Positions 859 to 59,303 of a DNA stretch of 64,000 bases are shown one piece after another. The DNA comes from Octopus vulgaris (lineage: Eukaryota). The notes under the pieces were generated by a model. That model ran no database searches and was not told the DNA's origin. It saw nothing but the letters and a program-made list of their open reading frames with translations. A program made the position numbers and the translations under genes. The DNA lies in NCBI GenBank assembly GCA_951406725.2, contig OX597815.1:203422001-203486000 (forward strand), in the 5' to 3' direction. Within the stretch, counting starts at the first letter, position 1. Each line of letters opens with the position of its first letter.

Positions 859-2185
859 ATGGACAATTTTTAGAGAAAGGGTATTATTCAATTACACTAA
901 CCCCAATACTTCACTGGTACTTTATTTTATGAACCTCGGAGTGATGCAAAACAAAACTGTCCTTGACATGATTTGAAACCAGAATATAAATACTGCAAAA
1001 ACACTACCACAAAACATTTTGTCTGACACTAACAATTCTGTTAATCTTCTTCAAGCAGCCACAGAAGAATGGACAGAATCATTAACTGGCTCTATGTTCT
1101 GAATTCAAATCCTCCTGAAGTCTCATCTCATTTGTCCAATGTACTAATGATTCTGCCAATTTAGTGCATTTAATAATAGATTTTAATAGAGGCAAATGAC
1201 CAGAAATTTTGGGGAAGCAGTTAATTGATCACCTAAAATTCATTGCATGACTTGTTCAAGTGAGAGTCAATTACATCAACCCCAGTACAAAGACTTCTAC
1301 TTCATGCTGTTGACTCTGGAGAGAGAGAAAGTTGGATGAGGCAGAATGCAATTTCAATGTAAAGAGTTTTCCAGTACCAGTCAAGAATTGGAATTGATAT
1401 AACTGACTAAACCCCTCCCACAAAATTCTATCAAAATAATGCTGCCACCAAGCTCTTTTTGGTGCCTTTAGCAGAACCCACTGTTTCAAACATCCAGATT
1501 AGATCTATGATCAGAGGGAAATTTTATCTCAAGTCCACTGCTTCTTGCTTCAGCAAGCTACAAATTGGTTTCTGTTTCCCTTTTTCCCCCACAACATATC
1601 TGAGAAGTTTCACAAAAGCTCAAGGACATTAACCTTTCTCCACTGAGTCATTAAAATCAAGTATAATAAAGCTTAATATCTTTAATAAAGAATTAATATC
1701 CAGTCTACAGACTGTGCTTAACAAGAATAAAAAACAAGCAGCACCAATGGAAGACGTATGAGCAATGATCCATTCGCAACATCTGTTTAACCAATATGAA
1801 TGCTATTAAAAACTGCTTTAATTATACTACATCTTTTATAATTAAACATCAATCATTTGGTAATAAACCGACATTACATTTAGTGAAATATGCATGTTTG
1901 GTTACTAGAAAAATAAATCAATATTTCATCTACACTAAGCATTGATTTTTTGCATTTTGGTGGTGATGGTAGTAGTGGTTAGAGTCATAAGTAATGTACT
2001 CAGCTTATTTAAACTAATAATCCCGGAAAGAAGAAAAGAAGTTGATCCTGGCAGAAACCACAGACACTGAATCTGGATGAGCCAATTCAACTTACTGAAT
2101 ATAGCAGCTATGCCTCCCTCAACCTACACAACCATATTCAAACAGAAAGAAAGGAAGGATATATTGGATAAGGTAGTCCTTACTG

Positions 2186-2220
2186 TGACATGCAAATTCG
2201 TGAAGCGTTCCATATTTTTT
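2186..2220 (+). pseudogene. U6 snRNA 3'-end fragment fused to a retroelement-like 3' tail (2221-2280)
   Basis: TGACATGCAAATTCGTGAAGCGTTCCATATTTTTT versus U6 TGACACGCAAATTCGTGAAGCGTTCCATATTTT (one CpG-type mismatch). Confidence 0.88.
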
Positions 2221-2656
2221 ACAGCGGTGGTGCCCCAGCATGGCCGCGGCTTTCGGGCTAAAACATTTTTAAGGATTTAAGTGAATGAGATCATATATGA
2301 AATACCAAAACTCCAATGTTTCCCCACCAATAGTGTAACCCTCTGGAACATTCTCATTGCCCATCTTTATTCCACCCATCATTAATGCATAAAATAAAAG
2401 TTTCAAAATGAACATTAATCTCAGCTTGTTACCTTCAAGACTAAAAATGCTAAAACAAAGACTATGGCTGTTGTCCTTAATCCTAATAAGTTTTGAATTA
2501 GGAGTGTTGCCCACAGACACACTAAAAAAATTACATCCACACAAAACACACACCTACAATCACACACCTACGCACACACAATCACACATCAACACACATA
2601 TTCAGACAATATATGAAGTAACAAAACAAAATACAAAAACCACTTCAGTTAATTAC

Positions 2657-54962: not shown

Positions 54963-55076
54963 CTGCGTAACTAAAGGTTCTAATGTTTTTTCCACTGACT
55001 TTGTTCGAATATCTAAATTCCTGGGATTCCATTTCAGGTGAATTGAACCAGGAATACCAGTTGGACTGGTTGTCAT
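54963..55076 (-). CDS. CTNNA: alpha-catenin first coding exon (114 nt CDS plus 21 nt 5'UTR to 55097): MTTSPTGIPGSIHLKWNPRNLDIRTKSVEKTLEPLVTQ
   Basis: ACCATG start context, upstream pyrimidine-rich TTTTCAG acceptor at 55098-55104, and CAG|GTGAA donor. Confidence 0.94.
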
Positions 55077-56494
55077 GGTGATTGGGGGTAAGTGGAACTG
55101 AAAAGAGAAAAGAAAATACGATGATATTAGACATCTGTTGGAGCAAGACAGGTTATACTCACACACTACACAAATCTGAATAAATATAAAAAATGTATTT
55201 ACATATGAGATGTATACTAAGAGAAAGTGGTGATATTTTCAATGCTTTGATGGTGTAGGGTAATGAAATGTCAGTAGAAATGTTTTTGCCACCCGGAGGC
55301 CTAGTAAGGCATTTAGTACTTTGTCTAAGAAAGTGATGTGGATGCAGATATGGCTGTGTGATGAAGTATTTCACTGTACAGCAATACGGCTTCAAGTTCA
55401 ATCTCACTAAGCAGCACTTGTTCAAGTGCCTCTAACCATAGTATCATAAGAGAAAGTGGTGATATTTTCAATGTTTTGATGGTGTAGGGCAATGTCAGTA
55501 GAAATGTTTTTGCTATACAGTCTGTTATGAGTTAGAGCAGATTCAAAAGACTTCATACCTACATGGTTTCTCATCATCATCATCGTTTAACCCTTTAGTG
55601 TTCAGATTATTCTGTCAAATGTGATGTTTGTTTATTTAAAATGGTTTGAATTAATCCTGTATTTTCTTGTAGTTTAGAGATTGCAGTGATCTGATTTTTT
55701 TAGTTTTAGAATGACATGGAAGGGCTGAGGTGAGAGGCGAGCTCTAGTCAGTTTCAATATAAAACAGGTTAAATATTTTGGCCGGATATGGCCAGTTTGA
55801 ATGCTAAAGGGTTAACGTCCGTTTTCCATGCTAGCATGGGTTGGACAGTTCAACTGGGGTCTGGGAAGCCAGTAGGCTGCGCCAGGCCCAATCTGATCTG
55901 GCAGTGTTTCTACAGCTGGATGCCCTTCCTAACGCCAACCACTCTGTGAGTGTAGTGGGTGCTTTTTACATGCCACCTGCACAGGTGCCAGACGAGGCTG
56001 GCAAATGGCCACAATCGGATGGTGCTTTTTACGTGCCACCGGCACAGGGGCCAGACGAGGCTGGCAACCTCTTAAAAATAAAATCTTCCTGAAATTGCAC
56101 AAGTTTTTGCTTTTATATCTTTAATTGTTTAATTTGAATGGGAAGGGAAGTGAAGCAGTATCCATACTCTTTTCAGTGCTTCTGAAACTGGAAGAGATTG
56201 GGGGAAGGACTGTATCCTCAAACCACATCAGAAGGATATGGAAAGAAAAAGCTAAATGCTTATGTATAAGCTACCACCCAGAGGCCTAATAAGACATTTC
56301 GTACTTTGTCTAGCAAAGTGATGTGGGTGCAGATATGGCTGTGTGGTGAAGAATTTTACATTGCAGCTTGGGGCTCAAGTGCCTCTGACCATAGTACCAA
56401 ATCAACTAAATCCTAAACATATTATTGAGCCTGTGGCCAAGCTTTAATGAGCAGAAGCTGCCAAAGGCATTCCAGCTGTGACCACCCTACATTA

Positions 56495-57674
56495 TCTCTT
56501 ATTATAAAAGGCAGATTTTATCTGCCTCCCTTTGGGAGTTATACAAATCTACAATATAGGATTTCTTCAATTACAATTTACCTAGCATTTTTAAGAGTAC
56601 AATGCATCGCGTCATGCCAGGTCCAGTTTTTAAAATTTAAACTCCAATTAAGCAAAATTTACAGAAAACTCACATTCTGGTGTGTGTGTCAAATGCTTTT
56701 CTTAGTCTGGTTTACACCACACGCAAACGCACACACACAGTGTGCGACGAATAAAATGAAAGTAAATGTAATATTTGTTTCTGTCTATCACGCTGATAGA
56801 TACATGAGTAAAATGTATGGGAAGCTAACAGATAACAGTGAGTGAAAATGTTCTTGGAAGAGAGTAAATTAGCGACAGAGTGATTTGAGCAAGACTAAAC
56901 TGAAAGTATGAAACAGTGTTTATGTATAAACAGACGACACTTATATAAACCCTTTCGTTACCAAACCGCCCGAATTTACCTATTCATATTTAAATGAGAA
57001 TATCAGAGTAAATCTCTTTAGTACATTCGTGAAAACACGTATTATACTTCGTAAACACTTCAAATACACTTTTGTACAAAAATCGAAGTGTAATTTTAAT
57101 TCCGTGAATTATGGGAGATTTTTTTTCCGAAATTTGTTCCTATTGTGTTTTCAAAATTTGTAATTCTGACAAAAAATGGATACGAATTTCATTATATCAA
57201 GCAGCGAGTCAGAATTCGAAGGATTTTCTACTGAAGACCTTCATAAATCTAACTCTATGACTGAAAAAAAAAAAAGCATCTTTATATAAGAGTGAAGTTG
57301 TGTGTCTGTCCCCTTCGATTTAGATTCGTAACTACTCCCACATTTTGCCGTGCAGTTTAACCAAAAGCGGGTATCTTATAGTCGTGATTCATATCGAGCC
57401 CTTCTGGGTATTAGCGCGCGTCTACGATGAGTCTACGATTTAAAAAAAATTTACCATCATATTTTTCCATTTTAATGCATTTTTTTCGCTTTTATATAAG
57501 GGAAGTAACTCTCTAAAAATATCTACGATGTGTCAACGATTTAAAAAAAAAATTTACCTTAATTTTTTTTCAATTTTTAATGCATTTTTTTGCTATTTTT
57601 TGGCTATAACTCTCTAAAAATGCTTATATAGTTATTTCCCTTACAACCCGAGCAACGCCGGGCGATACTGCTAG
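56495..57674 (+). mobile_element. composite non-autonomous Helitron (second TC start at 57279)
   Basis: A|TCTCTTATTATAAAAG start, internal A|TCTTTATATAAG start, and a single hairpin+CTAG|T end. Confidence 0.72.
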
Positions 57675-58046
57675 TAGAGAATATATAAAAAACCATTATC
57701 TCATGTATCATTCTGTTTTTATAGTTTTCCTAAATTCAATAGGATGCAATTTGAGAGGGATTTGGGAAGTATTTCTAGCAAGTCATGCAACTGCATAGAG
57801 AGTCCTATGATGGCTTGTTCAAGTAATAGTAGCAGCTTAGAGGCTTCCTCAGAAGTTTTTCAACTAGCTAGAAGTATCAACTACATCCCTAAATCTCTTT
57901 CAAAAACAAATACCTCCCACCACAGAAAGCAAAAAAAAAAATGCACATTGGACAAGTTTAGCCACACCTTGAAATAAGTCTAGTTCAGTGGTTCTCAACC
58001 AGGGTCCATATGGCTCGGGGGAGGGGTGGGGGGTCCATAACAGATT

Positions 58047-58246
58047 ACTCTTGTTTCAGTCATTTGACTGTGGCCATGCTGGAGCACCACCTTTAGTTGA
58101 GCAAATCAACCCCAGGACTTTTTCTTTGGAAGCCTAGTAATTATTCTATTGGTCTCTTTTGCCGAACCGCTAAGTTACAGGGACGTAAACACACCATCAT
58201 CGGTTGTCAAGCGATGTTGAGGGGACAGACACAAACATACACACAC

Positions 58247-58281
<35 letters not shown>

Positions 58282-58441
58282 ACGAGCTTCTTTCAGTTTC
58301 CGTCTACCAAATCCACTCACAAGGCTTTGGTTGGCCTGAGGCTATAGAAGACACTTGCCCAAGGTTCCACGCAGTGGGACTGAACCCGGAACCATGTGGT
58401 TGGGAAGCAAGCTACTTGCCACACAGCCACTCCTATGCCTA
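58047..58441 (-). mobile_element. SINE family A immediately downstream of the U6 copy
   Basis: Full-length copy whose head abuts the U6 oligo-T. Confidence 0.9.
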
Positions 58442-58442
58442 G

Positions 58443-58544
58443 AAAAAATATGGAATGCTTCATGAATTTCTGTGTCATCCTTATGCAGGGGCCATGCTAA
58501 TCTTCTCTGTATCGTTCTAATTTTAGAATATGTAACGCCATAGC
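58443..58544 (-). pseudogene. near full-length U6 snRNA retrocopy
   Basis: Reverse complement ACATATTCTAAAATTAGAACGATACAGAGAAGATTAGCATGGCCCCTGCATAAGGATGACACAGAAATTCATGAAGCATTCCATATTTTTT. ACAGAGA box and AGC triad intact; about 8 substitutions against the canonical U6 as I recall it; extreme 5' end missing; no promoter context. Confidence 0.93.
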
Positions 58545-59000
58545 TGTTAAAATTTGTGCAATAAATTAGTTATATTTATGCACAATAAAATGGATATAAC
58601 AATACACAAAATATGGCAATTTTTTAAACAATTCTTAATATTTAATTATAAAAATACACCAAGATTTTTTTTTATATATACAGTGAATGACCATAAAGTA
58701 AAATTGGAATCAAAGGGGTCCAAAGGCAAAAAAATTATTGAGAACCACTGGTCTAGTTGATCAAAGCTGACAAATGCTAGAGGCTTCACCATCCCTATCT
58801 GGTCTTCAAGTACCTTTAACAGAGTTCATTCTGTTACAGGTTCTTAGATCATGTCTCTGGTCTAAGGAACTCAATACCTTGATGTACTGCTTCCGACTGC
58901 AATACACCATCAGCCCCTTGCTTCCTCCAAACTTTCCTTGTGTCAATCTCAGAGTACCTACAAAAGTCATGGGCCACTGTCCTCCTCTGAGTAAAGGGGA

Positions 59001-59303
59001 ACCTTGGGCAAGTGTCTTCTATAGCCTTGGGCCAACCAAAGCCTTGTGAGTGGATTTGGTAAATGGAAACTGAAAGAAGTACGTTGTGTATATATATTGT
59101 GTGTGTGTGTGTGTGTGTATGTTTGTGTCTGTCCACTCAACATCGCTTGACAACCGATGCTGGTGTGTTTACGTCTCCGTAACTTAGCGGTTCGGCAAAA
59201 GAGACTGATAGAATAAGTACTAGGCTTCCAAAGAATAAGTCCTGGGGTGGATTTGCTCGACTAAAGGTGGTGCTCCAGCATGGCCACAGTCAAATGACTG
59301 AAG
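59001..59303 (+). mobile_element. 5'-truncated SINE family A
   Basis: Runs from ACCTTGGGCAAGT to the tail. Confidence 0.85.

Follow-up and report, generated by a model that had tools for sequence, protein, structure and literature searches.

A dead U6-SINE chimera at the alpha-catenin locus of Octopus vulgaris and the probable retrocopy of its ADAR-edited RNA

U6/LINE and U6/SINE pseudogenes, in which the 3' end of U6 is joined in sense to a piece of a retroposon, have been described in several reports (PMC4476161, PMC11838501, PMC6789731). In the available parts of those reports the U6 moiety is often 5'-truncated, and chimeras with non-L1 partners in platypus (Mon-1), anole (AnolisSINE2) and opossum (RTESINE1) carry short target-site duplications (TSDs) or none (PMC4476161). 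The element described here, from Octopus vulgaris, is of the same construction, with an intact U6 3' end running same-sense into a SINE. Unlike the vertebrate chimeras covered by those texts, the octopus chimeras join one SINE at its intact 5' end in at least 51 places, and 15 of the 30 copies retrieved keep U6 from nt 12 or earlier. A published octopus repeat annotation names 'U' and 'U-L1' SINE classes, which its available text leaves undescribed (PMC13282606).

A second copy of this element, found on another chromosome and called the C22 copy below, invites comparison with two further systems. The APOBEC "DNA-edited" LTR retrotransposons of vertebrates show one-stranded deaminase clusters frozen in germline retroelements, with a neighbour preference and with polarity set by a consensus (PMC4866542); according to the available portion of that paper, the screen sought G>A in LTR elements and detected none in 19 invertebrates. 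The C22 copy is alike in these features and unlike those elements in that its changes are A>G, appear to have been made on RNA, and lie in non-LTR sequence and host intron of an invertebrate. Hyper-edited RNAs of inverted Alu pairs offer the other parallel, with intronic inverted SINEs, tens of A>G per molecule and 5'-G depletion (PMC3197674, PMC2873906); the molecules described there are transcripts, whereas the edited state of the C22 copy is genomic DNA at a second locus. By analogy, the C22 copy may be viewed as an A>G, RNA-level counterpart of the APOBEC-edited LTR elements and as a genomic counterpart of hyper-edited Alu RNAs. A published mammalian precedent for ADAR-type A>G clusters in retrotransposons is likely; unlike such A>G-hypermutated retroelement DNA, the C22 copy appears to have had a host intron RNA as its template, and both its unedited parent and the predicted duplex are identified. 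No description of ADAR-edited SINE or intron retrocopies in octopus appeared in the titles and abstract openings searched, the main texts (supplements apart) of two octopus transposable-element papers contain no mention of editing or ADAR (PMC13282606, PMC12988792), and the available parts of two other papers hold no closer precedent (PMC5974252, PMC7693803).

The window is the whole stretch of DNA analysed, 64,000 nucleotides of contig OX597815.1 (assembly GCA_951406725.2, forward-strand positions 203,422,001 to 203,486,000). Its relevant features, in window coordinates, are the following.

54963..55097, minus strand: alpha-catenin exon, with the likely start ATG at 55076 and a splice acceptor at 55099-55098
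55571..59208, minus strand: parent region of the 2.2-kb copy at G000:C22:50596142-50598352
55571..56075, minus strand: LINE 3' tail ending in (GAT)n, at which the C22 copy terminates (putative priming site)
55591..55811, no strand assigned: TTAA-flanked MITE, which we take to be piggyBac-like, missing from the C22 copy
56495..57674, plus strand: Helitron-like insertion (5' TC, 3' hairpin and CTAG, between A and T), missing from the C22 copy
57978..57985, no strand assigned: 8-bp TSD GTCTAGTT of the hAT-type MITE
57986..57998, with inverted partner 58738..58750: perfect 13-bp terminal inverted repeat (TIR) CAGTGGTTCTCAA of the MITE
57986..58046, minus strand: 3' part of the MITE including the TIR at 57986-57998, aligned to 19 empty copies
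58047..58441, minus strand: complete SINE (head, TA/TG microsatellite, tail)
58055..58368: part of this SINE forming arm 2 of the predicted RNA duplex
58444..58545, minus strand: U6 pseudogene, U6 nt 6-107, without upstream U6-gene flank
58546..58750, minus strand: 5' part of the MITE including the TIR at 58738-58750
58751..58758, no strand assigned: second copy of the MITE TSD (GTCTAGTT)
58998..59302, plus strand: inversely oriented member of the same SINE family, truncated at its 5' end, which supplies arm 1 of the predicted duplex of about 300 bp

The original prediction, made from the letters of the window, described a near full-length U6 fused head-to-tail to a whole SINE on the minus strand, within a hAT MITE that keeps perfect 13-bp inverted termini and an 8-bp duplication. 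This anatomy is borne out, with the qualification that U6 is clipped at its 5' end. The host element has the short TIRs, 8-bp TSD and many empty copies of the hAT class, and the 19 empty copies (about 225-290 bp) align on either side of the insert, the MITE resuming directly after the SINE tail with none of its sequence duplicated. Both insert junctions show short microhomology to the empty MITE of about 245 bp. The SINE was also said to lack a TSD of its own; it does, and so does the U6-SINE unit as a whole. The U6 part is an Rfam match on the minus strand (100.9 bits, E 4.9e-25), separated from the SINE by a linker of 2-3 nt. Compared with the U6 gene cluster of the same genome on C1, it begins at nt 6 (58545), and the 5' stem is therefore clipped, and it has 9 mismatches over 102 nt, five of them at CpG. 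The ACAGAGA and AGC motifs are intact, as had been noted, and since such a copy would be expected to keep them by chance with P about 0.63, they are uninformative on function. A functional U6 gene was considered and rejected, as the copy starts at nt 6 and has MITE sequence upstream, unlike the C1 cluster. The U6-SINE is a dead copy that shows no sign of U6 function.

Four of five tested minus-strand ORFs of the host gene match Pfam Vinculin, and the one compared to PDB matches alpha-catenin chains. The host gene is thus an alpha-catenin gene on the minus strand, and the reported sense orientation of U6 relative to it stands. The splice acceptor preceding the likely start-codon exon probably places the cassette in an intron upstream of that exon. 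The exon upstream of this intron was not located, and a CpG-richer stretch was seen 15-25 kb upstream. A second U6 chimera lies in the window at 2184-2275 (plus strand), where a U6 3' end is joined to a short retroposon tail; it runs antisense to the host gene.

The proposal that U6 and SINE entered together gains support from divergence, from the empty MITEs, which lack both parts, and from a census of the genome. At non-CpG sites U6 differs at 4/88 positions and the SINE at 9/294 (p=0.51), and at CpG sites the figures are 5/14 and 10/38 (p=0.51), a similarity in age consistent with co-insertion, with low power given the 102 nt of U6. The MITE is older than the SINE (26/233, p=3e-4). A pattern that places the SINE head no more than 14 nt behind the U6 3' end matched 51 junctions genome-wide, and a control pattern matched none. 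Among the 30 chimeras retrieved, 28 contain at least 29 nt of U6 while two match the pattern alone; U6 starts range from nt 1 to 96, 25 different linkers occur, and these linkers are A/T-rich and vary from 2 to 9 nt. None of the 26 chimeras with a located tail has a clean TSD, the ten short matches seen being in simple sequence. A single chimeric master, of the snRNA-headed SINE class that we take to be the SINEU type, is rejected by the 25 linkers and the spread of U6 starts. Among the top 30 of 617 U6 candidates, six have gene-type flanks, and 22 of the 24 non-gene copies are directly followed, as judged by eye, by a SINE head or a LINE/SINE tail in the same orientation. These observations bear on the reading that the two parts are separate insertions, a SINE having entered the U tract of an older U6 pseudogene. 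That reading is very unlikely: it could appeal to the absence of a TSD enclosing the pair and to the weakness of an age test on 102 nt, and it is opposed by the equal divergence, by the immediate resumption of the MITE after the SINE tail and by the habitual pairing of non-gene U6 copies with retroposon pieces. Co-insertion is supported and appears ordinary, the window chimera being one among dozens of dead copies in the genome.

Ligation of U6 and SINE RNAs by an RtcB-type activity before reverse transcription, in place of a template jump, would be a less likely way of joining the two. The reaction needs a 5'-OH, and the 5' end of a SINE RNA made in full by Pol III would be expected to carry a triphosphate; the variable A/T-rich linkers fit untemplated addition during a jump. 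Such ligation has been shown for U6/L1 in human cells, as reported in PMC6789731, and the U6 3' end is complete in all the octopus junctions, partly through the design of the pattern.

Several further features of the U6 copies were recorded. In nine of them (L005, L006, L008, L011, L016, L017, L024, L027 and L030) U6 meets a short tail at a near-identical point, just before the GGCGGTGC stem-loop of that tail, and tail-only pieces without U6 also begin there; this common start points to a short tail RNA as a defined species, or else to a site of jumping or of protected cleavage. Seven chimeras (L006, L007, L012, L024, L025, L027 and L030) have a (TA)n tract immediately before their start, a hint that microsatellites may be preferred targets. 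The U6 genes on C1 (L019-L023, G000:C1:139.42-139.43 Mb) form a tandem cluster of at least seven, spaced about 1.1-1.4 kb apart, with a common TATA-containing upstream flank, and a second U6 5' variant is present among the pseudogenes. At L026 (G000:C18:2.052 Mb) a near full-length U6 follows the 5' part of a related MITE at a distance of about 100 bp and precedes an element of undefined type, in an event independent of that in the window.

It had also been suggested that the loaded MITE could be re-mobilised as DNA, and a search for other MITE copies carrying the cassette was proposed. The search did yield one such copy, at C22. The TSD of that copy is the same, however, and the two loci have about 1.4 kb of flank in common outside the TIRs, which argues against a transposition. 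A composite transposon, with hAT transposase moving the MITE together with its U6-SINE cargo, is largely refuted and highly improbable, even with the perfect 13-bp TIRs, the TSD and the existence of a second cassette copy in its favour. Of 1043 MITE candidates 40 were scored; only the window and C22 exceed 80% identity, and the other 38 are at or below it, the 19 aligned being all empty. The family is also old, at 7-16% from its consensus (about 11% for the window MITE), and one of the 30 chimeras, that of the window itself, lies between such TIRs.

The C22 copy, the only other cassette copy found, is 2.2 kb long. It corresponds to window positions 59208-57675, continues with 56495-55812 and finishes with the (GAT)n tail at about 55571; neither the Helitron-like insert nor the TTAA-flanked MITE of the window is present in it. 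Its 5' end is truncated, stopping inside arm 1, and its 3' end coincides with the end of the tail common to LINE remnants, beyond which the flanks diverge. Segmental duplication was rejected: when 100 kb of C22 is compared with 84 kb surrounding the window, the similarity is confined to the 2.2 kb and common repeats. The insertion shows neither TSD nor poly(A), and an empty C22 site was not found either. The repeat in its left flank breaks off about 40 bp earlier than it does in 11 sister copies, and these continue into sequence missing from the right flank. Of the hallmarks of retrotransposition, the tail end and the 5' truncation are present and the TSD is absent, with flanking target DNA lost, so integration may or may not have been endonuclease-primed; priming at the LINE tail is suggested by the position of the 3' end. 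The LINE that bears this tail, in a related C22 remnant, gives an RVT_1 match of 29 bits, under the 29.6 cut-off, and Pfam returned weak or sub-threshold matches for the clade of the partner LINE. The U6 parts of window and C22 have seven changes in common and two or three private to each, so the C22 copy postdates the cassette.

The letters of the C22 copy depart from those of the window in one particular way. Within the arms 64/150 A are changed to G, compared with 10/472 outside them (p=1.5e-34), while T>C in the arms stands at 4/140 and other changes at 22/522, like the background of 73/1658. No A has become G in U6 (0/39), the MITE (0/67) or the SINE head (0/12), which is left unpaired. 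The changes fall on the same strand in both arms, the minus or transcript strand, and in a minus-strand RNA the MITE SINE is predicted to pair with the antisense SINE at 58998-59302 over about 300 bp; 64 of 68 edits lie inside this predicted duplex. ADAR favours A with a 3' G neighbour, and with microsatellites left out A before a 3' G was changed more often here (21/30 vs 41/88, p=0.03). On the same basis A after a 5' G was spared (5/25 vs 57/93, p=3e-4), and 5'-G depletion is described as an ADAR signature in PMC2873906. The direction of change is set by the family consensus: the parent arms in the window have no A>G relative to it in any of the four half-arms and the C22 tail half has 30/50, so G is the derived state. 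In the part of arm 2 whose pairing partner lies outside the C22 copy, 18/35 A are changed. As the partner exists only at the parent, editing preceded truncation and took place in a longer parent RNA. Judged from the sequence pattern, the C22 copy is most likely a retrocopy of intron RNA hyper-edited by ADAR.

Four contig sets were compared over the C22 left flank, arm 1, spacer and MITE start. One (X1) was set aside as a possible source of the assembly; its contig resembles a mosaic of the two paralogs. Contigs of the other three (X2, X4 and X6, from two studies with organism labels A, B and C) cover 5-6 of the C22-specific G sites and extend 31 letters into the unique spacer; the letters at odds with C22 number 1, 1 and 0, and X4 and X6 contain both paralog types of the spacer. 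The edited letters of C22 arm 1 are therefore carried by public contigs of related organisms. The 5' junction is crossed by two contigs whose shorter side measures 30 letters, 1 below the bridging threshold; arm 2 and the 3' junction are known from the assembly.

These contigs also weigh against an origin of the C22 copy at the level of DNA, as a duplication or double-strand-break patch in which A>G arose by assembly error or by local mutagenesis of DNA or RNA-DNA hybrids. The missing TSD and the target deletion would suit such an origin, and ADAR can act on RNA-DNA hybrids (PMC7693803, in the part available). Assembly error is hard to reconcile with independent contigs that carry the arm 1 G's, and the changes, confined to one strand in either arm, end at the duplex edges and include a segment incapable of pairing at C22, which leaves this origin improbable. 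An RNA-templated break patch is possible and would still amount to edited RNA written into DNA.

Taken together, we regard it as very probable that the window holds a dead U6-SINE, likely the product of one LINE-driven reverse transcription event into an older MITE of the alpha-catenin intron, and that the C22 copy is likely a retrocopy of the intron RNA after hyper-editing by ADAR. In this scheme the MITE, with its TIRs, TSD and divergence of about 11% from consensus, inserted first. A LINE reverse transcriptase may then have copied SINE RNA to its 5' end, jumped to the 3' end of U6 and stopped at nt 6; the resulting structure is seen directly, and prior RNA ligation is the alternative to the jump. 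The antisense SINE lies 0.6 kb away, and the duplex of about 300 bp predicted for the intron RNA would have had about 43% of its A's deaminated by ADAR, the pattern being observed and the enzyme presumed. LINE reverse transcriptase would have primed further down that intron, at the (GAT)n tail of a LINE, and copied 2.2 kb, halting inside arm 1, with integration at C22 lacking a TSD and losing flanking target DNA; both ends are visible in the sequence, and the priming is our interpretation of them. The Helitron-like element and the TTAA MITE may have entered the parent later, or the allele that was copied may have had neither.

Edited SINE copies are rare but recurrent elsewhere in the genome. 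A query with the edited tail gave 1241 matches, of which 40 were scored and 29 non-self loci retrieved; 17 of these 29 have at least nine A>G over about 48 A sites. At sites that are not G in the query, A>G reached 30/318, compared with 31/1404 among 83 copies taken without selection. A motif of three A>G changes occurred 13 times and a control of three T>C changes, which holds a CpG, not at all, counts given without unedited totals. At held-out sites the 12 non-self motif matches show A>G at 84/460 vs T>C at 12/392, nine copies being individually significant for the skew and three not. Altogether at least 22 distinct SINE loci are A>G-skewed (four overlap between the sets), some of them mutually descended (L104/L106). 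No edited inverted partner arms were found beside the other edited SINEs within their 3-kb loci. L104 and L106 are heavily edited full-length SINEs on different chromosomes that have almost all edits in common and different flanks, which suggests a second edited source. At L115 (G000:C29:29.912-29.915 Mb) at least eight SINE heads are stacked head to tail and followed by one edited tail.

Eight further SINE copies with different flanks (L118, L119, L121, L123-L126 and L132) carry one set of five A>G changes, one copy with a variant letter. A motif with four G's has 14 occurrences and its unedited form 43,390, where independent mutation would give 0.017; seven of the 14 copies belong to the five-edit group, one is separately edited and six were uninspected. 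The simplest reading is an edited founder that spread, although hot-spot convergence may also account for the shared set, and the group is a candidate subfamily from an ADAR-edited founder. On balance we favour the view that ADAR editing of SINE duplexes is a recurring source of heritable mutation, in which edited intron and SINE RNAs would be written into germline DNA by LINEs and at least one edited SINE would have seeded five edits at eight or more sites.

In conclusion, the U6-SINE chimera does no more than add a mollusc-type genome to a phenomenon known from vertebrates. The C22 copy is weightier, as unedited parent and edited daughter form a matched pair that would record one germline RNA molecule. 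If it is a retrocopy, LINE enzymes are able to capture nuclear RNA of an intron by way of an embedded tail. The pair also allows a test of whether ADAR preference and the editing sites have stayed constant from a time before the related organisms with this copy diverged. If this account is true, edited retrocopies would be dated snapshots of ancient germline editing for which the parent locus is known. RNA editing is heavy in the octopus lineage, and if edited SINEs found subfamilies, it would feed repeat evolution directly in that lineage.
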